From: Candidatus Latescibacterota bacterium
GTDB taxonomy: Bacteria; Latescibacterota; UBA2968; GCA-2709665
Length of the DNA stretch: 64,000 nt
Direction of reading: 5' to 3'
Assembly: GCA_965116875.1 (NCBI GenBank)
Contig: OZ220733.1
Span: 672,001-736,000 of the forward strand
Shown: piece after piece, positions 929 through 14,295 of the stretch
Layout: each line of letters starts with the position of its first letter
How positions within the stretch are numbered: position 1 is the stretch's first letter
Translations under genes and position numbers: made by a program
Notes under the pieces: model-generated
Databases searched by the model: none
What the model was told of the DNA's origin: nothing
Seen by the model: the letters and a program-made list of their open reading frames with translations, nothing else

Positions 929-2368
929 ATGTCCGATCCCGTTCTTCGATTCGCGCCGTCGCCCACGGGCGGATTTCACGTGGGCAACGCCCGCACTGCG
1001 CTGTTCAATTTTCTCTACGTCCGGCATTACGGCGGGCAGTTGCATCTGCGCATTGAAGATACGGATCGCAACCGGTCCACGGACGCCGCTCTCCAGACCA
1101 TACAGGACGGACTGGACTGGCTGGGGATTGAGTTTCACGGCCAGCCGGTGTTTCAGTCCGGGAACGCGCCTGCGCACCGAAAAGCGGTTGACCGGCTGCT
1201 GGAAACCGGACACGCGTATTACGCCTACGAAACCCCGGAGGAAGTGCGAGCCCTGCAGCAGCAGGCGCAGGCGGAGGGGCGGAGGGTTCGGTACAACAGG
1301 GACCTGACGCCGGAACAACGTGCGGTTTTCGAGGCCGAGGGGCGGCCGAAGACGGTCCGCTTCAGGGTTCCCGCAGGTGAGACGGTCTGGCAGGATCCCA
1401 TCCGGGGCGCGCAGCGATGGGACAACGTCGAGGTCGAGGATTTCATCGTCCTGCGCGCGGACGGATCTCCGATTTACCATCTGGCGGTGGTTGTAGACGA
1501 CCACGATCTGGGCGTGACGCTGGTGATCCGGGGCGCGGAACACCTTTCCAATACGCCCAAGCAGGTGATGCTCTTGCAAGCGCTGGGTTGGGTGGTCCCG
1601 GCATACGCGCATACGACGTTGCTGATGGGCACGGATGGGAGAAAGCTGAGCAAGCGCCTTGGCGCGACGACCGTCACTGAATACCGGCAGCAGGGCATCC
1701 TGCCTGAAGCGTTGTTCAATTTTCTGGCGCTTCAGGGCTGGTCTCCCGGGGACGACCGGGAGGTCTTCACACAAGAGGAATTGATCGAGGCGTTTTCCGT
1801 TGAAGGAATGCTCAGCAAGAACGCGGTATTCGACGAGCGGAAGCTGGTCTGGCTGAACGGCGAACACCTCAGGTTGAAACCGGTTTCCGAACTCTTGCAA
1901 ACGGCGCTGAGTCTTTGGATTGACGCGGGATGGATAGCGGCGGAAGACGCGGAGACCCGGCGGTCGATCCTGCTCAGGGCCGTAAAACTGATGCAGCCGC
2001 GCATCCGGACCGTGCGGGATTTCCTGAATTTCGAGTACTTCTTCAACGATCCGGAATCATACGAGGAAAAGGCCCGAAAAAAACACTGGAAGGTCGACAG
2101 CCCGTCCCGGCTGGAGTTGCTGATCGACAGGCTGGAAGCGTTGTCCGACTTCAGCGAACGGGAAATCGAAGGCGCCACGCGCACGCTGTCCGGACAGTTG
2201 GGTATCTCCACCGGAAAGCTGATCCATCCCACACGTCTCGTACTCAGCGGCACGAACACGGGGCCGGGACTGTTCGAAATGATGGATGTTCTGGGACAGG
2301 AAACGTGTATCCGGCGGATGAAGACGGGCCTGGAACGACTGGGACGAAGGGAGACCATTTCGCAATAG
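929..2368 (+). CDS. gltX: glutamate--tRNA ligase
   Basis: RFAPSPTG, HVGN (HIGH), LRIEDTD, VVDD, RGAEH, KLSKR motifs. Confidence 0.97.
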   Translation: MSDPVLRFAPSPTGGFHVGNARTALFNFLYVRHYGGQLHLRIEDTDRNRSTDAALQTIQDGLDWLGIEFHGQPVFQSGNAPAHRKAVDRLLETGHAYYAYETPEEVRALQQQAQAEGRRVRYNRDLTPEQRAVFEAEGRPKTVRFRVPAGETVWQDPIRGAQRWDNVEVEDFIVLRADGSPIYHLAVVVDDHDLGVTLVIRGAEHLSNTPKQVMLLQALGWVVPAYAHTTLLMGTDGRKLSKRLGATTVTEYRQQGILPEALFNFLALQGWSPGDDREVFTQEELIEAFSVEGMLSKNAVFDERKLVWLNGEHLRLKPVSELLQTALSLWIDAGWIAAEDAETRRSILLRAVKLMQPRIRTVRDFLNFEYFFNDPESYEEKARKKHWKVDSPSRLELLIDRLEALSDFSEREIEGATRTLSGQLGISTGKLIHPTRLVLSGTNTGPGLFEMMDVLGQETCIRRMKTGLERLGRRETISQ

Positions 2369-2395
2369 ACCAACAATAGGAATGACGAATATGGC

Positions 2396-2469
2396 TGCCC
2401 CCTCGTCTAATGGCAAGACATGCGGCTCTGGACCGTAGTATCGGGGTTCGAATCCCTGGGGGGCAGCCA
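2396..2469 (+). tRNA. tRNA-Gln(CTG)
   Basis: Acceptor TGCCCCC/GGGGGCA, anticodon arm TGCGG-CTCTGGA-CCGTA, GGTTCGAATCC, encoded CCA. Confidence 0.95.
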
Positions 2470-2525
2470 AATTTTGTCCATAAACGCAGTGGTCGTGGGC
2501 ATATCGTACCTATTTTTCTTGAAAT

Positions 2526-2912
2526 TTGCCAAAAAATAACAGGATTTCCAATCCCGTAACCGTTTTGTCGGGAAGTGCGATATCTGAACGCAACAAGAAT
2601 ACACCCACATACAAGCTTGCAGGATGTGCGTCTCTTGTCGAACGGTACCACCCTGACGTTATTCCGAACTTGCATTCCTCCGTCGTGACCACCAGAGCAA
2701 ATCGAACGATTGACTCCCGATACGGAATGGTCAAGGAATCCTTCCCACCCAGGTATTGGCCCAAGGATACGCCGGGCGACCGCCTGGAATTCGCTCTCAT
2801 GTATAGCGGGACAGATCTCGCTATTCTCGCTACGCTGTTTGAGAATGGGAATTACATACAATCGAAAACAAGAGAGCGTACGCAGGGCCCGTACTTCCGA
2901 AACTCAGTATAG
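2526..2912 (+). pseudogene. N-terminal fragment of a Fic-family protein
   Basis: AG..LVERY..DVIPN.H...YWPKDTPGDRLEFALMYSGTDLAILA resembles the N-terminus of long Fic proteins; no HPFxDGNGR motif follows. Confidence 0.5.
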
Positions 2913-3163
2913 CAAAGTCGAGCTGTTTCTCAGGGGGTGCACATTCGGTCCGGTATTGCACGAGCAGGACGTTTGTATTACATTTGAGGACGTCGACGCC
3001 TTCGTTTGACGATTAGAAATGCGATCACCTGCCTGCCCCGGCCGAAGAAGGACTTGACAAGAGGCCGATGTTACATTTAAAATTCCCTGGCCTCACTCGT
3101 CGAATTCAAAACATATGAACACACGTTCATCCTCCCCGACGCTGTGTTTGTAGGAATACCTAT

Positions 3164-3200
3164 ACCCGCAACGTCGGGATGTCCCCGCGTGCGGGTTTTT
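3164..3200 (+). terminator. intrinsic terminator-like hairpin
   Basis: ACCCGCA...TGCGGGT stem followed by a T run. Confidence 0.5.
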
Positions 3201-3229
3201 CAGTGTGCTCCATAGAGGGGGTGACTGAC

Positions 3230-3751
3230 ATGCCGGATTGGCTCAATACACCAGTAATCGTTATCGCCGTCCTCGCCGTCTGTACAGTATTGGTGAAAAT
3301 TGGCATGTGGGTAGGAGGCGTAAACAGTGATCGAAGGACATTCGATTCTTTTATAGACGAGGTTAAAACGGATATCAAGGAAATCAAAAACAACATCACT
3401 CGAATTATCATTCAACTCGCCCAGCGCCCCGCGTTTGTCGCAGGCAGCCCACTACAGCTCACAGATTTCGGAGAAGAAATTTCCTCGGATATAGAGGCCA
3501 AAAAGTGGGCCGAAAAACTCGCCCCGTACGTAAAGAAGGAAATCGAAGCTGAAGACAGCCCTGTTGACACGGACTACGATGTCCAGGAATACTGCGTATA
3601 CTACACCCAACACAATGAACTTGATGCTGATCTGGTTCGGGCGATCAAGAATTCTGCCTTTAATTGAGGCATGGATGCCGAGATCGTGCAGAGGGTTTTC
3701 GCCATTGTGTTGCGAGACAAACTTCTCGAAGTCATGTCATCCGAGAAATAG
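3230..3751 (+). pseudogene. membrane-anchored hypothetical protein with an in-frame TGA at 3665-3667
   Basis: RBS GAGGGG then ATG 3230, N-terminal TM helix, short coiled coil, SPLQLTDFG; the frame stays protein-like (GMDAEIVQRVFAIVLRDKLLE) to TAG 3751. Confidence 0.6.
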
Positions 3752-3790
3752 GCGTAACTGCACAACCGAAAATCGGAATCTCCTTTTCTC

Positions 3791-3961
3791 GTCAATATCC
3801 GCGGAAAAGACGGCAGGACGTACACCATGGTAGCGGAACGCCCCAACGAGCCCCCGCCGGACGTTCCATCGATCCAGGCGGATATTACGACTCGTGATGT
3901 CGTCAGCCTCATCAGAGGGCAGAGGCGCAGAATCCGAGGGCAGCGCCAGCGCAACAGATGA
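3791..3961 (+). pseudogene. 5'-truncated Phd/YefM-like antitoxin remnant
   Basis: Manual translation VNIRGKDGRTYTMVAERPNEPPPDVPSIQADITTRDVVSLIR resembles the C-terminal half of a prevent-host-death antitoxin subfamily; in-frame TAA at 3755 and no start. Confidence 0.5.
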
Positions 3962-4460
3962 ATTTGGAAAGACTCGGAACCGACGGGTTACTCCATACCT
4001 CCGGCGCGGTCCCGGATTCGCTGTAAAAAATGCCGCCGCTTTCGCACAACGCGAGAGCGGCGGCGTCTTATTTTCCGGACAGAGGGACGGGACGGTTATC
4101 GAGTCGTGCGGTCCGCCAACACGATGACCCCGCTTGCGATCATCTGCCGTATCCTGGGCCACCATGTATTGGCACGAACGGCCAAAACATAACCCGACCG
4201 TCGAAAGGCACAATTAACCGAAGCTGTCTGGTGGCCGTCAACAGATCGGTTGCGTAAGGACGAAACGTATCGCAAAACGCGCCAGCTATGGGTAAGCACG
4301 TGGCGGTTTCAGAGGGAACTCAATTCTAACATACACCGAAAGCAAAGTCGATTTGATGCTGGAGTTGCAAGGGATCAAGGTCACTGGCCAGAAGCGCAGA
4401 AAACTTCCATAAGTACGTCATGCGAAGTCAAACGAGATATAGTCATGGAGATAGGCCGAG

Positions 4461-6113
4461 TCATTTCGGTACAAAGCTGTAGCTGATTCCGACTCCAATG
4501 CCACTCTTGAAATGCTTCTGGGTCGGTACCGTGTCGAGTCCTTCGATCTTTTGAATACCCTGTGTTAAGTTCTCTTGCAACGTGGTAACTCGGCCGACAT
4601 GAACACCGACGGTTACCAGGAGACACCTTTTGATTCTTACACTGCCGCCAACGATATACTCAACATTTGATCCATGTTCGCCTCCGAGGTTTGCGAGTGC
4701 GCCACCTAAACTCAGGTGCATATCAAAGTGATCTGAACAATGCCAGGGTAGGAGCATATTGACCAGTACTCCCGGTATCGCCCGATACTTCGACCGATTG
4801 TTGAATCCGATCACCTCCGATGTCTTTATGTTGCCTTGCGCATCAAGCATTGGTCGGAAGTCGTACTCTTTGTCAATGATTCTGCTCATAAAGACTCCAA
4901 AACTGAAAGAGAGCGGGTGCTCACAAACGAACGTAACCAAGGGCAACTCCTCCACTTTGGCCTTTTTCGTCTGCGCCGTGTCAGCTTCATCAGGCGGGAA
5001 TAAGTCGAAAACCAACAAGGTCAGATTCTCTTTTCGAGGCCTGGGACCAATGTTAATCGACTCCGTGATCTTGGACTGCGTGCGTTCGTGAATTTGGAGG
5101 GCGGTGCGAAGATGCTCTGCGATTTCCGCGATCTGCTGCTCGGCTCGCAGCCACTTCGGTTTAACTGCTTCGATCCGTCTCACGATGCTGTCAAGGTTTG
5201 TTTTTTCGACACGCGCCAATGCTGCTTCGGTTTGTCTCAGTTTGCCGTCAAGTTCAGCTGCTTCAACCAATGCCAATGCTTTTTCGACCTTTTTCAGTTT
5301 ACCGTCAACTCTTGGTGCCACGGTCGCCTGCGCCAACTCTGCTTCGGTCCGACTCAGGGCACTGTCAAGTGTCGCTTTGCTGGCGAGGAAGATACGTTCT
5401 TTCAAAGAGGCCAACCGGTTCTTCAGAGCATCAGTTCCAGGCCAAATCGGTATGTTCTTCGTGTTCCTTGTTTCTTCTATGAGTCGTCTGCACCTGGCCA
5501 TTAGTGTGTCGCTTGCTAGTCTTCCGCTATCAGCGATAAAAGCGCGTAGTTTTCGAACTCGTTCCGCAGTGGCTCGCTGGGCACTGTCGGCCTGAGTTGC
5601 CGTCTGCAAGATCATGGTTACAAGACTTACGTCCCCACATTTTATGCGCGACGGAATTTGGGCTAAAACCACATCGGGCGTGAAAGGCAGAAGCTTGAGC
5701 AAATTAGGTGTGTTTGTCGGTGGTACATTCGTAGGTTCAGCTTGATTCTTGTTGGCAGCGTTAGAGGTCAGGGACGGCAGAAGCTTGAGCACATTTGGAG
5801 CGTCAATCTCCGTAACGTGACGGCCAATCCTGTATCGGTAGCGAACCCAATTTAGATCCTTCACCGTGATCGTTGCTTGGCCGCGAACTGGCACTTCGCC
5901 GAAGGAACCGTGGGACGTTAGGGCGGAGAAAGTTAAATTGGTTCCGGCAAGCAGAGGCGCGGGGGATCCCGCGAGCGACAGCATTGCAAAGCCAGCGAAG
6001 AGTAAGGACTTGAGCAAATTGCAATTTATCCACTTCGGTTTTGGGCATCGGAACAGCGGGATTGTAGCCGAAATGGAATGACTCACGCAGCGATGTTTTG
6101 GCTTCCATGTCAT
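4461..6113 (-). CDS. secreted hypothetical protein with coiled-coil stalk and C-terminal beta-strand domain
   Basis: 550-aa ORF, signal-like segment (LLFAGFAMLSLAGSPAPLLA), heptad-rich middle, amphipathic strands ending GIGVGISYSF; start uncertain. Confidence 0.75.
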   Translation of the reverse strand: MTWKPKHRCVSHSISATIPLFRCPKPKWINCNLLKSLLFAGFAMLSLAGSPAPLLAGTNLTFSALTSHGSFGEVPVRGQATITVKDLNWVRYRYRIGRHVTEIDAPNVLKLLPSLTSNAANKNQAEPTNVPPTNTPNLLKLLPFTPDVVLAQIPSRIKCGDVSLVTMILQTATQADSAQRATAERVRKLRAFIADSGRLASDTLMARCRRLIEETRNTKNIPIWPGTDALKNRLASLKERIFLASKATLDSALSRTEAELAQATVAPRVDGKLKKVEKALALVEAAELDGKLRQTEAALARVEKTNLDSIVRRIEAVKPKWLRAEQQIAEIAEHLRTALQIHERTQSKITESINIGPRPRKENLTLLVFDLFPPDEADTAQTKKAKVEELPLVTFVCEHPLSFSFGVFMSRIIDKEYDFRPMLDAQGNIKTSEVIGFNNRSKYRAIPGVLVNMLLPWHCSDHFDMHLSLGGALANLGGEHGSNVEYIVGGSVRIKRCLLVTVGVHVGRVTTLQENLTQGIQKIEGLDTVPTQKHFKSGIGVGISYSFVPK

Positions 6114-6531
6114 GCTATACCTCTTTCATCGTTTTGGCGGATAGTGACCCGCTGAGTTACAAAGACTTACGTTCATCTTTGACAGAAAGTCCACGACCCT
6201 GACCACACGAGTCCCTTCGAAGAGCGACATGCCAATGACCCGCCACCAATTCGGACGAGGATTGGCCATTTGTAAAAATGGGACTTCCCTACATAAACAC
6301 TCATTTAAGCATCGATATATTGAAAACTCTGTTCTGGCGAGATCACTCCTTGGAACTTCGACTAAGTCGATTTTGACTTTGGTGAGTGGACTCAACCGCA
6401 TGTCGGAACTTAACTTTCCGGTAGGGGCAAATTGAGTCTTGTCTATTGTTTTTCGCCAGCGTACGGGTTATCCAGCGCGCGAAGGTTTCGTCGTATGCTT
6501 TCGACTTAATAGGCTTATAACCGATGCGATC

Positions 6532-6957
6532 CTATTTCTGAAGCATACACTCACATCCCATCCACAACTTGACAAGGTCTCCGGTCTTATTTTGCAGTAA
6601 GCGTATGCGGGTGCGCAGGTGTTCTATGTCTGAACACTGGGATTTATTACTAATGTTGGTGATGGAGTCGATCTTTGTATGCAGTACTCCAATAGATCTG
6701 TGGACGCTGTCCTCGTGGGCCTGAACGGTATCAATGAGCGCGTTTAAGCTTGAATCCAAGTTGGTAATGATAATTCTCAAGGAGTCGACCGTTGCTTCAA
6801 CTGGGCTTACGGTTTTGTTCTCTACGTAGATGACACCGTATAAACCGCCCGAAAAAGCACAGATGAAGAGGATAATTTCCAAGAAGTATTTCATTATGAT
6901 TTTCCGAAATACGAACTCAAGAACGCTCATAATCAAGCCACCGATGCCATTCATCAA
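6532..6957 (-). CDS. hypothetical membrane-anchored coiled-coil protein
   Basis: AT-rich ORF with TM helix (FLEIILFICAFSGGLYGVIYV) followed by heptad pattern. Confidence 0.55.
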   Translation of the reverse strand: MMNGIGGLIMSVLEFVFRKIIMKYFLEIILFICAFSGGLYGVIYVENKTVSPVEATVDSLRIIITNLDSSLNALIDTVQAHEDSVHRSIGVLHTKIDSITNISNKSQCSDIEHLRTRIRLLQNKTGDLVKLWMGCECMLQK

Positions 6958-7243
6958 ATACCCCCGAATTAGGCCAAGTTCAGAGAGTTGCGATCCAATG
7001 TGGACGTACGCGGTACGACCTGAACCGACCGGTTGGGTTCAGGACAGCTTTGCCCTGAGCGCTTGAAAAGCAATTTTCGGTATTTTGCAGTGGGCGACCC
7101 GCGGGCCTCCGCAGCTATTACAGCCGCAGTGCAAGAGAGCAACGGCATGTTCGCCGGGACCCTCGCTTTCGCGGTGCTATTGCGCAATCAAGCCATGCCT
7201 ACGGGTACCTGCATACGGCGGCGAGCACGACAACTGTGCTCGT

Positions 7244-7950
7244 TACATGATGTTTTCCCGCGAATTGTGAGGTGTGTCAGCTTTTGCGGTATTGTCCTGC
7301 CTATCCTATTTATCCATGTTTCCCGAATTCAAACCGACATTTGCGCTTGTTGATTCTTGGTTTTGACGTTCGCCGTTTGTTTCATGGCGAGGGCTGACGG
7401 CTGCAAGCTAACGGCTTTTTACGGTTCAACCGTCCGGGCAACACGGAAACCGACGTCGCTGATGTAGTCCCGATAGTCAGCAGAATCCCTGCCGCGATAG
7501 CCGGCGCGGAAATACTGTGGGCTATAGTTCCACGATCCGCCGCGAATCACGCGATACGAACAGTCGCCGCGTTCCCACGCCGCCCCGTCCGCAGGCGCGC
7601 CAATCGGCCTTTATACATGATGTTTTTCCTCGAATGGCCAGGTTTGTCGGTTTTGGGGTCTTGTCCTGCCTCTCTGGTTCATTCATGTTTCCCGAGTTCG
7701 CACCAACGTGCGTGCTTCTTGATTCTTGGCTTCGCTGTTGGTTTTCTGCCTCAAGCTGTACGCTGACAGTTTCTTATGGCGTAAGCGTCCGGGCAACTCG
7801 AAAACCGATGGCGTAGTGCCGGTTCGTGGTAGCGTACTCGCTGCGAATCGCCGAGCGGAGGTGAATGGGAGGGGCGGACCACGAACCGCCGCGGATAACG
7901 CGACGCGAGCAATCGTCTCTCTCCCACGCCGAGCCGTCCGCAGGCGCTCC
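7244..7950 (-). repeat. diverged tandem direct repeat of about 350 bp (7244-7601 and 7614-7950)
   Basis: Both units begin TACATGATGTTTT on the + strand, share TTGTCCTGCCT, CATGTTTCCCGA and TGATTCTTGG, and continue through an FGE-domain 3' end. Confidence 0.85.
7419..7601 (-). pseudogene. orphan 60-aa C-terminal cassette of an FGE-sulfatase/CLec domain
   Basis: Manual translation GAPADGAAWERGDCSYRVIRGGSWNYSPQYFRAGYRGRDSADYRDYISDVGFRVARTVEP*; no in-frame start. Confidence 0.9.
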
Positions 7951-10209
7951 CACGTAATTGCCGTGCCAGCAGTCCTGCACCCACTCATACACGTTTCCGT
8001 GCATGTCGTGAAGTCCCCACTCATTGGCGGGAAACGAACCCACAGGCGCGGTGGTTCTCTCACCGTCCCACTGACTGCCGCAACCTGCGCAATTTGCCCG
8101 GTTGCTGCCGATCTCATCCCCCCAACTGTACTTCGTCGTCGTGCCCGCACGAGCCGCATACTCCCACTCGGCCTCGCTCGGCAGACGGTACCGCTCCTCT
8201 CCCGCCAACGTGTTTAGCCTCGCAATGAATGCCTGCGCATCGTTCCAAGTAACTAGCTCCACAGGACAAGCCCCGCATCCTTGGAAGTTTGACGGGTTGC
8301 TCTCCATCACCGCCTCCCACTGCGCCTGCGTCACCTCATACTTTCCCAAATAGAATCCTTGGCTGATAGTTACCGGATGTACTGGTCCTTCACTCGCAAC
8401 GCGACCCGCCTCCGATGGAGGAGAACCCATCCGAAAGGTCCCCGGCTTTATCCATACCATCTCCATCGACACTCCCCCCGGCAATGTGTAGATGGTTGGA
8501 GGGGGCAATACCACCACTTCCACCTGCTTGGCCAACCCATTAGCGCGGTCAAACACACTCAGAGTCGCTGTCTGCCCGCTGTCCCCGACCGCAATCATCC
8601 AAGCCACTGACGCATCAATCGGGTCCGGATTGATCGAGACGACATCGTCGTCGCTCGACTCCCATTTGTACTCTGGCGACCTGAAATCTGGAACCGTCGT
8701 CGCCTGTACGCGCACCGTATCGCCCTCGGTAATCCACAGTTCCTTGATTCCCTCAGGATTGGACGGCGACCGGTTGATGAACACCTCGGGGCGTACCGAA
8801 TGGAATTCCCGGCTGTTAAACTCCCCCCAGAGTACGAAGTTGTGTAGATTCTCTTTCACGCGCAGCTCCAGGCGATGAACCCGGTCGCCGCGTTTGGGGC
8901 TCAAGTATCGCAACCAGTAGAAGCTGTCCGCGAATGAGACGATCCTCTTCTGAATCTCGATAAACCGTTCGGCCAACTGGTCTGCCAGTTCGGTCACGTC
9001 CGTGATCTGGAAGAACCCCGCATTACCCAGTTCCTTCAGGACTTCCGGATCAATCTCGTTCCCCAACCCGATGGTATAGATGTTCTTCTTTCCCCGCGCC
9101 TCGAGCGCCTCGTCCAGGGTATAGGAGCCCTGCGTATCGCTCCCATCGGTCAGGATGACCAGGAACCCCTGCTCGACTTCAGTTGTCGAAAACACGTCCC
9201 GCCACCGTCCGGTTCCTGTGATGACGCTGCCGTACAGGTTGGTGGTGGAAAAGCCCAAGCGGATCTCCCGAATTGCTTTCGTCAGCGCTTCCACGTCGTT
9301 CGTGAAGTCCTGCAGCAGCACCGGGTCCTCTGAGAATTCATACAGGGCGATCTCCTGGTTCTCGGTCATGTTCTCCACCAGGACGATCGCGGCCTCCTTG
9401 ATCTGCTCCAGGTGGTCCTTTACGCTCGTACTGGTGTCGAGCATCAAAACCGTCTTCAGTTTGAAACGATGGGGCAGAGCTTTCCGCTTCTGTACGCGCA
9501 TCGCCGATTCGGAAGGGGAAACCTCCTGATCGTTCTCACGCACTTCGAAGTGTTCGGTGGTAAGCGCAGTGACGCCCCAGTTGTTGAAGTCGAGCACCTG
9601 GAACAGGATATTGACGAAGCTGGGCGCCTCGGTGGTGATCCGGTGCCCTACCAACTTGAATCGGAACTCCACCACCCTCACGGCGATGGTTTCGGAGTCG
9701 GTCCCGCCGCGGCCGTCGTCTACCGTGAAGGTAACGCGGTGGACGTCGCCTACGCCGCCGCTGGGCGTCCATTGGAACGTGGTCCCGGAAAACGACGCGC
9801 CAGGGGGCTGCCCGCTCACCCGGTACCGCAAATCATCCCCGTCCGGGTCCGTAGCCGCGAGTTCGATATTCAGCGGAACGCCAATGGGTACCCCCTGGTC
9901 GCCGATCCGCTCCAAAACGGGCGGATCGTTCGGGACGGAACTCATCCCGAAAAACCCGGCAAACGCCACGAAATCGGCGAAACCCACCTGCCCGTCGCCA
10001 TTCAGATCGTATTTCGCGTCGTACCTGCCATCGCCCGAACTGGTCCCGAAGTTGCCGGCGAACGCCACAAAATCGCTGAAACCGACCGTTCCATCGCCGT
10101 CGAAATCGGCGTCTGCGGCGGACTGGGCGTGGACAAAGGCAAGGCCGGCGAATGCGATTGCCGTCAGAGCGAGAGCGACGCAGACGGATGTTTTCGCGAG
10201 GTTCTTCAT
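7774..10209 (-). CDS. secreted dockerin-like / Ig / vWA / Ig / FGE-sulfatase (SUMF1, CLec-fold) protein
   Basis: Signal peptide; twin DFDGDGTVGFSDF / DLNGDGQVGFADF; cadherin-like ATDPDGD..VDDGRGG; MIDAS DTSTS and LTDG; YEVTQAQW, RLPSEAEWEYAAR, DMHGNVYEW, RGGSW, GFRVAR. Confidence 0.92.
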   Translation of the reverse strand: MKNLAKTSVCVALALTAIAFAGLAFVHAQSAADADFDGDGTVGFSDFVAFAGNFGTSSGDGRYDAKYDLNGDGQVGFADFVAFAGFFGMSSVPNDPPVLERIGDQGVPIGVPLNIELAATDPDGDDLRYRVSGQPPGASFSGTTFQWTPSGGVGDVHRVTFTVDDGRGGTDSETIAVRVVEFRFKLVGHRITTEAPSFVNILFQVLDFNNWGVTALTTEHFEVRENDQEVSPSESAMRVQKRKALPHRFKLKTVLMLDTSTSVKDHLEQIKEAAIVLVENMTENQEIALYEFSEDPVLLQDFTNDVEALTKAIREIRLGFSTTNLYGSVITGTGRWRDVFSTTEVEQGFLVILTDGSDTQGSYTLDEALEARGKKNIYTIGLGNEIDPEVLKELGNAGFFQITDVTELADQLAERFIEIQKRIVSFADSFYWLRYLSPKRGDRVHRLELRVKENLHNFVLWGEFNSREFHSVRPEVFINRSPSNPEGIKELWITEGDTVRVQATTVPDFRSPEYKWESSDDDVVSINPDPIDASVAWMIAVGDSGQTATLSVFDRANGLAKQVEVVVLPPPTIYTLPGGVSMEMVWIKPGTFRMGSPPSEAGRVASEGPVHPVTISQGFYLGKYEVTQAQWEAVMESNPSNFQGCGACPVELVTWNDAQAFIARLNTLAGEERYRLPSEAEWEYAARAGTTTKYSWGDEIGSNRANCAGCGSQWDGERTTAPVGSFPANEWGLHDMHGNVYEWVQDCWHGNYVGAPADGSAWERDDCSRRVIRGGSWSAPPIHLRSAIRSEYATTNRHYAIGFRVARTLTP

Positions 10210-11806: not shown

Positions 11807-13588
11807 CTATTGCGGGCAGTTGGGGCCACTTGTCTCTTTGATAGCCTGAAGCCAGGTCTGAAAGGTCGAATCGAGCGGTGCGCATAAGCCCGTGCCGGCG
11901 AAATAAAAGCCGAGCATTTCGGTCAGCCGGGTCAGGCTTTGCGGAAGCGCGCCCGTTAACGACTCGTTGTTATTTACCCGCAGATATTTCAGCTTGGACA
12001 GTTTCCCCAGTTCGATTGGAATCGGACCGCTTAGATCGTTGTTATTCAGGTCAAGGTTTTCAAGGTTGGCGAGATTGCCCAACTCAGGTGGAATCGGGCC
12101 GCTAAGACTGTTGTGATTCAGAGAAAGGCCCGGAAGGCTGGTGAGTTGACCCAGTTCGGCTGGAATTGGTCCAGTCAGCTGATTGAAACCAAGAAAGAAC
12201 CTTTCGGCCTTTTTCAGATTGCCCAGTTCCGCTGGAATCGAACCTGTGAGCTGATTTCCGGCAAGGGCGAACCCCCACAGGTTCGTGAGGTTGCCCAAAC
12301 CGGGTGGAATCGGACCGCTTAGCTGATTTCCGTTAAGCCACAGCGACTCCAGGTTGGACAGGTTGGCCAACTCGTCCGGGATTTCGCCCGTCAACTGGTT
12401 ACGGGTAAGAAGCAGGCCCTCCAGATGTTCCAGTCGGCCTAATTCCTCAGGAATCGAACCGTCAAGGAGATTAAAGGCCAGATGCAGCATTGTCAGGTTC
12501 CGGAGGTCCCCCAGTTGAACCGGTATCGGCCCGCTCAGTTGATTTGCCCAAAGTTCCAGCTGTGTAAGCCTCGAAAGATCAGCCAACTCGACTGGAATGG
12601 AACCGCTCAACGCGTTTCGGTCCAGTTTCAGGCTGTCCAGGTCGGTCAATTCGACCAGTACCAACGGGATTTCGCCCGTCAGGTTGTTCTGAGACAGGAC
12701 AAGACCGGCGACCCGGCCATCCTCAACCGTGACGCCATGCCATCTCTCGATAGGGCTTTCCGTCAGCCAGTTGTGCTGCGTCGTCCAATTGTGCCCTTCG
12801 GTAGCGTTGTATAGCGCGACGAGCGCGTCACGGTTTGGCGTAGCATGGGGAGACGGCGCCACTTCCTGCCCGAACTGACCGGCAAGCACGAGAAAGTCCG
12901 CGAAACCCACCGAGCCGTCGCTGTCCAGGTCGAACCGCGCTTCATACGTCCCATCACCTGCCGTCGTACCGTATTGAGCCGCAAACTGAAGAAAGTCGGA
13001 AAACCCCACCGCACCGTCCGCGTCGAAATCGGCTGACGGCCCCGAGGATGCCGCGTTCAACTCAATTGCGACGTTCACATTAATGGTGTCCTGTTGCCCA
13101 TCCCGGCCGAGCCTCGCTTCCACGATACGGATCGTGGTGCCAGTAAAAGTCGCCTTCGTGCGAAACTGCACGCTCGCAGCGAGACCGGTAGCCGCCGATG
13201 CATTGCCACCCATCGACGCGATTCCAAGAGAGACCGACGGAGGGTCCGTCCCGGTCTCCGTCAGCACCTGCGCATCGGGAAATACGTCCCCCGCAGCGGC
13301 GCCTTCGTACGACACCCGCCCGCTGTCGTATACGAATCGAATCTCGACCCCCTGCGTTCCGCTGACGCCACTCGCGTAAACATGGATCGATACGGTCTCT
13401 TCGGGGGACACGTCGACGGCCGTGACGCCCTGATCGCCGGCGGCGCCATCCACGTCCGCGGACAACGAAAAACTGTCCTGCGCAGATAGAGACAACGGGC
13501 AAAGCAGAAAGGCGCTGGCCAGCAAAACAAGACATTCGGTCCGTACCGGCCCGAAGAATTCCGTCACATAATGGCGTAGCGTAACCAT
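11807..13588 (-). CDS. secreted cohesin-like / dockerin-like / plant-type leucine-rich-repeat protein
   Basis: GAGGA RBS then ATG 13588; DFDADGAVGFSDF / DLDSDGSVGFADF; DALVALYNAT.G.NW cap; about ten LxLxxNxLSGxIPxELGxL repeats. Confidence 0.9.
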   Translation of the reverse strand: MVTLRHYVTEFFGPVRTECLVLLASAFLLCPLSLSAQDSFSLSADVDGAAGDQGVTAVDVSPEETVSIHVYASGVSGTQGVEIRFVYDSGRVSYEGAAAGDVFPDAQVLTETGTDPPSVSLGIASMGGNASAATGLAASVQFRTKATFTGTTIRIVEARLGRDGQQDTINVNVAIELNAASSGPSADFDADGAVGFSDFLQFAAQYGTTAGDGTYEARFDLDSDGSVGFADFLVLAGQFGQEVAPSPHATPNRDALVALYNATEGHNWTTQHNWLTESPIERWHGVTVEDGRVAGLVLSQNNLTGEIPLVLVELTDLDSLKLDRNALSGSIPVELADLSRLTQLELWANQLSGPIPVQLGDLRNLTMLHLAFNLLDGSIPEELGRLEHLEGLLLTRNQLTGEIPDELANLSNLESLWLNGNQLSGPIPPGLGNLTNLWGFALAGNQLTGSIPAELGNLKKAERFFLGFNQLTGPIPAELGQLTSLPGLSLNHNSLSGPIPPELGNLANLENLDLNNNDLSGPIPIELGKLSKLKYLRVNNNESLTGALPQSLTRLTEMLGFYFAGTGLCAPLDSTFQTWLQAIKETSGPNCPQ

Positions 13589-14295
13589 GGTTTCCTCACT
13601 TTCTGTTCGTTGGATGGTGGTGAAGGGCCACTTGTTTTTCGATGTCCGACGGCCTGATTTGCATCCGGACGGCCGGGTAAGAGATATGTTTGAAAGTGAC
13701 GATGACACCGACCGAATCTTGGCGTAGACGAATGTGGCGATATTTCTCGACAGGGTTTCCCGCTTTTTTGATATTCGAGCTTTTGTCAATAGTCAGGCTT
13801 CACGCGGATTGCCTCTGCGTTTTCCCGAAATTTCCGCGGAGGGATTCCGTGGTATCTTCGAAAGGCTTCCTCAGGCCTGGTTTGATTTCTGAAACCGTGC
13901 GTTTCCGCGACGTTGTACAGAGAACATTGTCCGGATTACAACGTCTCCTTCGACGCCGGTTCCGGTTGACATTTCGGCCCCGGTCGGATATATTGAAAAA
14001 TGAAGGCCGCGATCCGTCCTGCAGCGCAATCGCGCCAGGGACATATGGGCTGCGGACCTTTGTCGCGGGCCGTCGGTTGTCGACTTTGCGGGTCAGGGAA
14101 CCGACGGCTTTTTTGTTTTAAAGGTGAGCGTGCACCGGCAGATTTCTTACCCCTGCAACTACAATTGTTCGGGTATAATACTATTACCCATGATAATGAA
14201 CGACCGGCCCGAATTCAACCTATAAATCCGGTTTCAGGGCCGATTTTCGTGTTTTTTTTCAATTACTTACGGGATCGAACAGACCGGCGGGACCT

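Follow-up and report, generated by a model that had tools for sequence, protein, structure and literature searches.

Variation confined to one end of a surface protein has been described in several kinds of system, three of which come close to the locus presented here. Silent-cassette systems such as Neisseria pilE/pilS and Borrelia vlsE have many cassettes, long identical flanks and dedicated cis elements, and they leave mosaics in the population; efficient exchange by RecA needs far more than 14 nt of identity. Diversity-generating retroelements (DGRs) combine a reverse transcriptase (RT), a template repeat (TR) and a variable region (VR) that differs from the TR only at adenines. FGE-type CLec proteins (TvpA type, category 'b') are the largest class of DGR targets, with 71 of 372 DGRs, in the part of Wu et al. 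2018 (PMC5758913) that deals with targets, and the relevant portion of Roux et al. 2021 (PMC8144416) infers intragenic recombination among DGR targets from their domain modularity. Lastly, polymorphic toxin genes are accompanied by orphan C-terminal modules, and in the functional Rhs orphan of Salmonella the upstream homology extends over 522 bp at 95%, according to those passages of Koskiniemi et al. 2014 (PMC3967940) that concern it.

The locus that we describe adds to these a genome without RT that has fossil VRs together with a displaced tip resembling an Rhs/CdiA orphan. It lies within a window of 64,000 nt, by which we mean the whole stretch of DNA analysed, and centres on a gene for an 811-aa protein. 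By eye, the N-terminus of this protein is signal-peptide-like, and Pfam finds dockerin/EF-hand-like repeats, Big_9 (7e-10), VWA (1.3e-11) and a C-terminal FGE-sulfatase domain of CLec fold (residues 583-807, E = 4e-56). On the minus strand, the gene is followed by a non-coding element of ~172 nt (copy A), a start-less and stop-free copy of the gene's last 60 codons (the cassette, or VR2, as opposed to the expressed tip VR1), and a second copy of the element (copy B; Table 1). An earlier note on this DNA had described such a copy behind the gene, and it is indeed there: the frame from 7610 to 7422, 63 codons in length, translates as RPIGAPADGAAWERGDCSYRVIRGGSWNYSPQYFRAGYRGRDSADYRDYISDVGFRVARTVEP, with a stop at 7419-7421 and a TAA at 7611-7613 that bounds it on the upstream side. 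The cassette alone matches the end of the FGE-sulfatase profile (positions 200-255 of 255, E = 3.2e-7), and both gene and cassette exceed the curated PF03781 cut-off of 23.3 bits (191 and 30.7 bits, respectively). The ORF listing contains no in-frame ORF of >=50 aa in the cassette region.

Table 1. Features of the locus and of the retroelements in two relatives (window positions unless a genome is named)
Feature	Position	Strand	Basis or remark
811-aa gene	7774..10209	minus	ORF listing and Pfam; secreted multidomain protein
Expressed tip VR1	7774..7947	minus	from the GCGCCTGCGGACGG repeat to the stop; aligned to TR/VR pairs of relatives
Variable segment of VR1	7807-7878	minus	24 codons
Upstream 14-nt direct repeat, GCGCCTGCGGACGG	7934..7947	minus	encodes APADG; one border of the 349-nt block
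Element copy A	7599..7773	minus	non-coding, 3' of the gene's stop; includes the natural continuation ..GATTGGC up to the repeat
Downstream 14-nt direct repeat	7585..7598	minus	first 8 nt, GCGCCTGC, at 7591-7598 also fit the element continuation in G005
Orphan tip VR2 (cassette)	7419..7610	minus	63 stop-free codons plus stop, no start codon
Variable segment of VR2	7452-7529	minus	26 codons
Element copy B	7244..7418	minus	MAFFT, blastn, four-way alignment
Conserved downstream flank past element B	7129..7243	minus	72% (query 631-832) to the third copy, genome 2374642-2374834
Copy of the genome-wide motif CATGGATAAACAGGATAGGCAGGA, 1 mismatch	7295..7318	minus	inside element B; element A has a degenerate copy
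Intact DGR of G007	G007:C1:5556001-5563000, 1617-4076	reverse complement	VR 2182-2302, RT 2754-3953, TR 3956-4076
Decayed DGR of G015	G015:C1:557001-564000, 975-3870	reverse complement	

The two tip-plus-element units are direct repeats with a spacing of 349-369 nt (349 for the 14-nt repeat). Aligned with MAFFT they have a mean column identity of 81%, and by blastn they are 68% identical over 363 nt as a whole and 80.6% identical over the 72 nt (24 codons) of the 5' scaffold. Elements A and B are 78.3% identical over 120 nt, which bears out the claim that the same non-coding element follows both copies; likewise, the 14-nt identity reported at the start of the cassette was found at both sites given in Table 1, and is the longest exact identity between the two units. 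This arrangement is no assembly artefact, as two studies recovered it in their contigs: 6500-7982 is covered by one contig of run X1, and 6500-7679 and 7724-7982 by pieces from X2, of the second study, all with 0 differences from the window.

The earlier note saw no RT in the window, and this absence extends to the entire genome (a single contig of 5.45 Mb, 97.7% complete). The RVT_1 profile returned 0 candidates there, in a search which as a control gave matches in 3 of 14 genomes; the RT of a DGR that we found in a relative (G007, below) gave a best tblastn match of only E = 4.4 and 0 matches in a second genome search; and the same query found no RT remnant in the flank of the cassette. The peptide of the TR matched only the tips of FGE genes, and a stand-alone TR is absent from the genome. 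A DGR RT and TR acting in trans, as the note had suggested looking for, were therefore not found in this genome by the RVT_1, G007 RT and TR peptide searches.

Two relatives do carry such elements. Our survey of FGE tips across 22 genomes of the family returned two short 'tips' rich in Asn and AAC, in G007 and G015, and both are TRs. G007 possesses a textbook intact DGR: a 400-aa ORF matches RVT_1 (E = 1e-14), the TR follows directly and lies 1.65 kb behind an FGE gene, and VR and TR agree at 83/83 non-adenine but 12/31 adenine positions. This DGR sits within a 46-kb cluster that holds ~10 FGE 3' ends, and the frame of its target is broken by a TAG at the border between body and FGE domain. 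In G015 the element has decayed: of the RT only the last 41 codons are left, whilst the TR survives ~260 nt past its target gene and is oriented like it; here, VR equals TR at 81/83 non-adenine and 15/31 adenine positions. With the G007 RT as query, this type of RT was found in only these two of the 22 genomes, and the other RT matches (~28% identical, multi-copy, 463 aa) are probably group II intron RTs, judging by their copy number and length. G015 also has a start-less FGE tip (G015:C1:2817001-2831000, 4116-4430 minus), which is fused, in a different frame, to part of a T9SS C-terminal sorting domain. Because this tip matches the G015 TR, 2.3 Mb away, at 78/83 non-adenine but only 14/31 adenine positions, it was a DGR target in trans, either before or after its truncation.

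The TRs of these relatives change how the two tips of the window are to be seen. The earlier note held that the differences between them are not adenine-specific, which is right insofar as neither copy is the other's template; the differences do, however, fall on the TR-adenine columns of relatives. VR1 and VR2 differ at 26/31 adenine columns of the G015 TR as against 19/83 others (Fisher p = 4e-9), the same comparison on the G007 TR gives 24/31 against 21/83, and within the variable segment alone the differences fall on 25/30 TR-adenine and 15/42 other columns (p = 9e-5). The 3' boundary of VR1, CCCGGACGCTTAC, is moreover of the VR type, like those of the VRs in G007 and G015. Since their differences sit on the adenine columns of relatives' TRs, both tips are fossil DGR variable regions, the diversity of which comes from a since-lost DGR and not from recombination. 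A difference of ~23-36% between VR1 and VR2 at non-adenine positions means at the same time that the tips are old, or that they came from different templates. A similar footprint is present elsewhere in the genome: at genome 4768046-4768240, beyond the window, an 825-aa FGE paralog ends in a tip equal to the G007 TR at 73/83 non-adenine and 12/31 adenine positions, which is a further fossil VR in this RT-less genome. From this match it follows that the lineage once had such a DGR, or that it received genes which a DGR had diversified.

Set against the DGR class, the locus is thus no member, for the RT is missing and, in place of a TR that differs only at adenines, there is a cassette that departs from VR1 at the 19 non-adenine columns counted above. 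What it has is the third hallmark of the class, a CLec-fold VR with variation on TR-adenine positions, in the form of a fossil footprint against the TRs of relatives. Its likeness to known FGE/CLec targets is otherwise close: the domain is PF03781, the variable segment, flanked by RV.RGGSW and GFRVAR, makes up the very C-terminus, and in G007 and G015 the homologous genes each come with a matching TR, from which they differ in an adenine-directed manner. Unlike these targets, the genome of the window has neither RT nor TR, and one of its two fossil tips is detached from any gene. We would therefore describe the locus as what remains after the loss of a DGR, with frozen VRs whose adenine footprint is recognisable only against the TRs of relatives. 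For annotation, RT-less 'cassettes' of this kind are best read as fossil VRs, and not as a novel system of variation independent of an RT, unless population data show switching.

One could ask whether the cassette is itself an old TR, as it has the position and orientation of the G015 remnant, where the TR follows ~260 nt behind its target in the same orientation. We find this hardly credible. The cassette agrees with the G015 TR at 12/31 adenine and 60/83 other positions, no better than ordinary VRs do; its 3' boundary is the VR-type CCCGGACG and not the CCCGCACG of the G007 and G015 TRs; it is not AAC-rich; and its flank is free of RT remnants. Cassette and gene are homologous from GAPADG onwards, whereas homology to the TRs of G007 and G015 sets in 48 nt later (RV.RGGSW), and the related fragment in G005, described below, reaches 74 codons further upstream. 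On the strength of the longer upstream homology, the VR-type boundary and the composition, we rejected the cassette as a TR in favour of a gene fragment.

Comparison with orthologous loci bears on how this fragment arose. Orthologs of the gene body are found in 6 other genomes among the 53 searched in the order (own genome included), 2 of them among the 14 other genomes of the genus. The G011 ortholog, with 69% aa identity over the part of the body used in the search, carries a VR1-like tip but is not accompanied by an orphan. A frameshift splits it where body and FGE domain meet (G011:C5:2262001-2273000, reverse-complement ~3430-3565), which could be an error in sequencing or the scar of a recombination; the same border is the site of the TAG in the G007 target and of a domain replacement in G005. 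G015 has two orthologs (78%), one of which bears a VR2-like tip that shares the cassette's 2-codon insertion. The second (G015:C1:498001-510000, 2448-6752; 1435 aa) continues beyond the FGE tip with a long LRR domain, a read-through that we take as another sign of modular recombination at the tip. This LRR domain resembles a separate 660-aa LRR protein in the window (11807-13789).

The G005 ortholog (81%) is the most telling. Its own FGE domain is quite different, and after another ~300 nt comes a stretch of at least 134 codons with neither start nor internal stop. The part of this fragment from EWEY to GAPADG has the window gene as its best match within the window's genome (81.6% over 239 nt, next paralog 76.6%), with dS = 0.89 and dN/dS = 0.13, the gene bodies having dS of 0.5-1.6. 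The tip of the fragment, by contrast, has its best match in the cassette (74% over 177 nt; 72-74% nt), the closest relatives of which are this tip and the expressed tip of the G015 ortholog; and a copy of the element follows the fragment in turn. In G005, one contiguous sequence thereby joins the domain half of the window gene to a cassette-type tip. This is the fusion of cassette and gene half at GAPADG that the earlier note predicted, although it occurs as a start-less fragment, in another species, and the joined form was seen only there. Between orthologs the type of expressed tip changes (VR1-like in G011, VR2-like in G015, a third domain in G005), and the scaffolds of VR1, VR2 and the G005 tip lie at much the same distance from one another (46/59, 45/59 and 46/59). 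The divergent G005 domain and its 300-nt spacer are matched best in G015, at 66-70% identity, so that a recent donor was not found.

Relative to G005, the window has an extra 349 nt (7599-7947), comprising the VR1 tip, the stop and element A, and with the 14-nt direct repeat at its borders. The G005 element is followed by GTTTGGCGCGCCTGCC, where the window has GATTGGCGCGCCTGCGGACGG, so that the first 8 nt of the repeat (GCGCCTGC) belong to the element's continuation; the junction in the window is then one of microhomology between this continuation and the APADG codons. It follows that the sharp end of the element, placed by the earlier note at ACATCATGTA, is no true end, as the natural continuation seen after the G005 copy (..TTGGCGCGCCTGC) runs into the 14-nt repeat.

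Our favoured explanation, which we hold to be probable, is that the cassette is an orphan: a variable tip, either the former one or a sister of it, from a CLec/FGE surface protein targeted by a DGR, displaced by recombination and now inert. The displacement would have been an unequal or illegitimate recombination, the partner being a diverged allele or paralog with a VR1-type tip and a similar downstream element. Such an exchange, at the short repeat GCGCCTGC(GGACGG), would have put the 349-nt block of tip, stop and element before the old tip, setting the newcomer in frame and cutting the VR2 tip off from the gene. The hypervariable segments of both tips would have been made earlier by adenine-directed mutagenesis from a DGR that is intact in G007, decayed in G015 and lost from this genome, leaving the tips frozen as they now stand. 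A separate event of the same sort, in which another domain did the displacing at a more upstream point, would account for the fragment in G005. We infer the direction of the event, insertion and displacement rather than deletion, as well as the lack of present function, from these comparisons.

Compared with five other tips, the 34 scaffold codons of the cassette give dN/dS values of 0.09-0.49 (our dN/dS values rest on 34-74 codons), which means that the cassette was being translated during most of its divergence; a duplication in situ, if silent from the start, would be expected to have decayed further than the cassette has. Start-less 3' fragments of FGE genes are, besides, a recurrent sight: in the 22 genomes, 9 of 51 tip matches lie in open frames of <200 aa, and on inspection these are 6 fragments, 2 TRs and 1 frameshifted full domain. 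Some of the start-less fragments stand in plain debris, such as a frameshifted fragment, or an out-of-frame T9SS fragment that runs into the tip. Two points run counter to displacement. Elements A and B (78%) are closer to each other than B is to the G005 copy (~70%), which would fit an in-situ duplication or gene conversion, and the orphan retains all scaffold motifs and an open frame, as does the G005 fragment over 134 codons, which could reflect continuing selection. A donor for the block of VR1 plus element was not found among the 41 genomes searched.

An identical junction could also have come about by microhomology deletion of a tandem paralog downstream, an alternative that the earlier note had itself raised. 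In this scenario a second DGR-target FGE gene lost all but its last 60 codons by deletion between two GCGCCTGC sites, one after element A and the other in the GAPADG codons of the second gene. The junction, at 8 nt of microhomology within the element's natural continuation, fits such an event; FGE genes do cluster, as the ~10 3' ends within 46 kb in G007 and a further FGE gene 2 kb upstream of the G005 ortholog illustrate; the scaffold dN/dS of 0.09-0.49 suits a tip that was expressed until recently; and a decayed FGE fragment with the element occurs at a second locus of the same genome. We nevertheless judge it rather unlikely. The domain half of the G005 fragment looks orthologous to the window gene, being its best match and having a dS like that of the body, and yet bears a cassette-type tip. 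Deletion would thus require that tandem genes existed in the ancestor, that 5' parts were deleted twice independently and that a domain was replaced, which makes it less parsimonious than displacement, with its one event per lineage; and a full second gene was not found at any of the 7 orthologous loci inspected in the 6 other genomes.

With displacement as the preferred reading, the likeness to orphan rhs-CT and cdiA-CT modules becomes plain. As in the orphans treated in the pertinent sections of Koskiniemi et al. 2014 (PMC3967940), there is a start-less 3' fragment downstream of a full gene, with its own copy of the downstream sequence and the look of a displaced tip; it retains upstream coding sequence, since 24 of its 63 codons are scaffold at 81% nt identity. 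The differences are as clear: the tip is a lectin-fold binding module and no toxin, a non-coding element follows it in place of an immunity gene, the diversity of the window tips was made by a retroelement, and the homology amounts to 72 nt at 81%, compared with 522 bp at 95% in those sections (PMC3967940), with no recombinants seen. Of the tip swapping in the manner of Rhs/CdiA that the earlier note proposed, the orphan 3' module stands, whilst the diversity of the variable segment is the work of a DGR and no ongoing switching was observed. If our reading holds, DGR-target genes shed and displace C-terminal tips through recombination at short homologies, in the manner of polymorphic toxin genes, and the locus offers concrete cases for the intragenic recombination among DGR targets proposed in the part of Roux et al. 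2021 (PMC8144416) that treats modularity. A loose literature search on orphan or fragmentary DGR targets returned nothing relevant, and the supplementary tables of DGR surveys may list remote or fragmentary ones.

Is the orphan still in use? A working silent cassette, kept and swapped in at the scaffold by RecA-type recombination, would provide phase or antigenic variation independent of any RT. The open frame and the full set of scaffold motifs, kept both here and in G005, would agree with this, as would the joined form in G005, the different tip types that the orthologs in G011, G015 and G005 express, and the intragenic recombination among targets suggested in the section of Roux et al. 2021 (PMC8144416) already mentioned. 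The locus also shares with pilS and vls the promoter-less partial copy of a variable surface-protein segment beside the expression locus. There is, however, one cassette where those systems have many, its longest identity is 14 nt where theirs have long near-identical flanks, and their dedicated cis elements and population mosaics were not found at the window locus. The 5' flank of 72 nt at 81% likewise falls far short of the Salmonella Rhs orphan described in the portion of PMC3967940 cited above, the contigs of two studies are identical over both tips, and the other orphan tips in relatives stand in obvious debris. We accordingly found no support for the silent alternative cassette of the earlier note, and consider a working one very unlikely.

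The orphan tip is most likely inert debris, and at best a passive reservoir, because it has no start codon and too little identity for efficient homologous exchange. The assembled contigs of two studies, which drop rare variants, give no sign of ongoing switching, and those of the two runs contain no credible recombinant joint; seven joints with sides of 20-43 nt, in paralog-rich parts, were discounted. A metagenome scan with the 811-aa protein gave no full-gene match, and hence no strain-level variants, among 45 loci, as 42/45 match the FGE domain only (35-60% identity) and 3/45 match residues 25-87 only. It is conceivable, if improbable, that displaced tips make up a second tier of diversification, competent for recombination, mutagenised in trans where a DGR is present, and swapped as stored tips at the GAPADG scaffold in lineages that lack an RT. 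Were this so, a lineage without RT could still change its ligand specificity.

The non-coding element deserves separate mention. A search of the genome and its relatives, as the earlier note had advised, found full-length copies after FGE 3' ends in 4/4 cases, namely the two in the window, one at 2.37 Mb in the same genome and one in G005. The third copy, 1.7 Mb from the window, follows a frameshifted FGE fragment that starts mid-domain (genome 2370001-2378000, local 4101-4840), and shares with the window the flank past element B, which is absent after copy A. A gene next to this third locus (local 5938-6555) resembles, by eye, the gene beside the G015 orphan (G015:C1:2817001-2831000, 5790-6644). 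Between species the element is ~70% identical, better conserved than synonymous sites would suggest. That it recurs only after CLec ends is true of the full copies; its first 60 nt, on the other hand, also occur away from FGE genes, and its core motif has many copies in the genus. Two candidate roles were rejected: a conserved gene after the RBS-like sequence and ATG, as the frames in the four copies run to only 23, 0, 23 and 47 codons, and a conserved module of tip, element and gene, as the small membrane-protein genes downstream in the window, in G005 and at the third locus are non-homologous (BLASTP E = 2.2, 2.5). Rfam gave 0 matches in the region 6000-8400 on both strands at E up to 1; folding of the four copies gave no convincing conserved hairpin (two short hairpins, 13 predicted pairs, covariation term -0.06); and within 6900-8000 a scan for such signals gave 0 sites resembling promoters and 1 resembling a terminator, where 1.4 were expected.

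The core motif of the element, CATGGATAAACAGGATAGGCAGGA, has 38 copies in the genome at <=4 mismatches versus 0, 0 and 0 in three shuffles, examples being those at genome 641742, 954114, 1050347 and 2707996. Frequently TAAAAGCCAAAACCGA and more CAGGAT repeats come after it, and it is present in most genomes of the genus. Many copies end, on the opposite strand, in TAAGTTTG, which we take to resemble a Bacteroidota-type -7 box.
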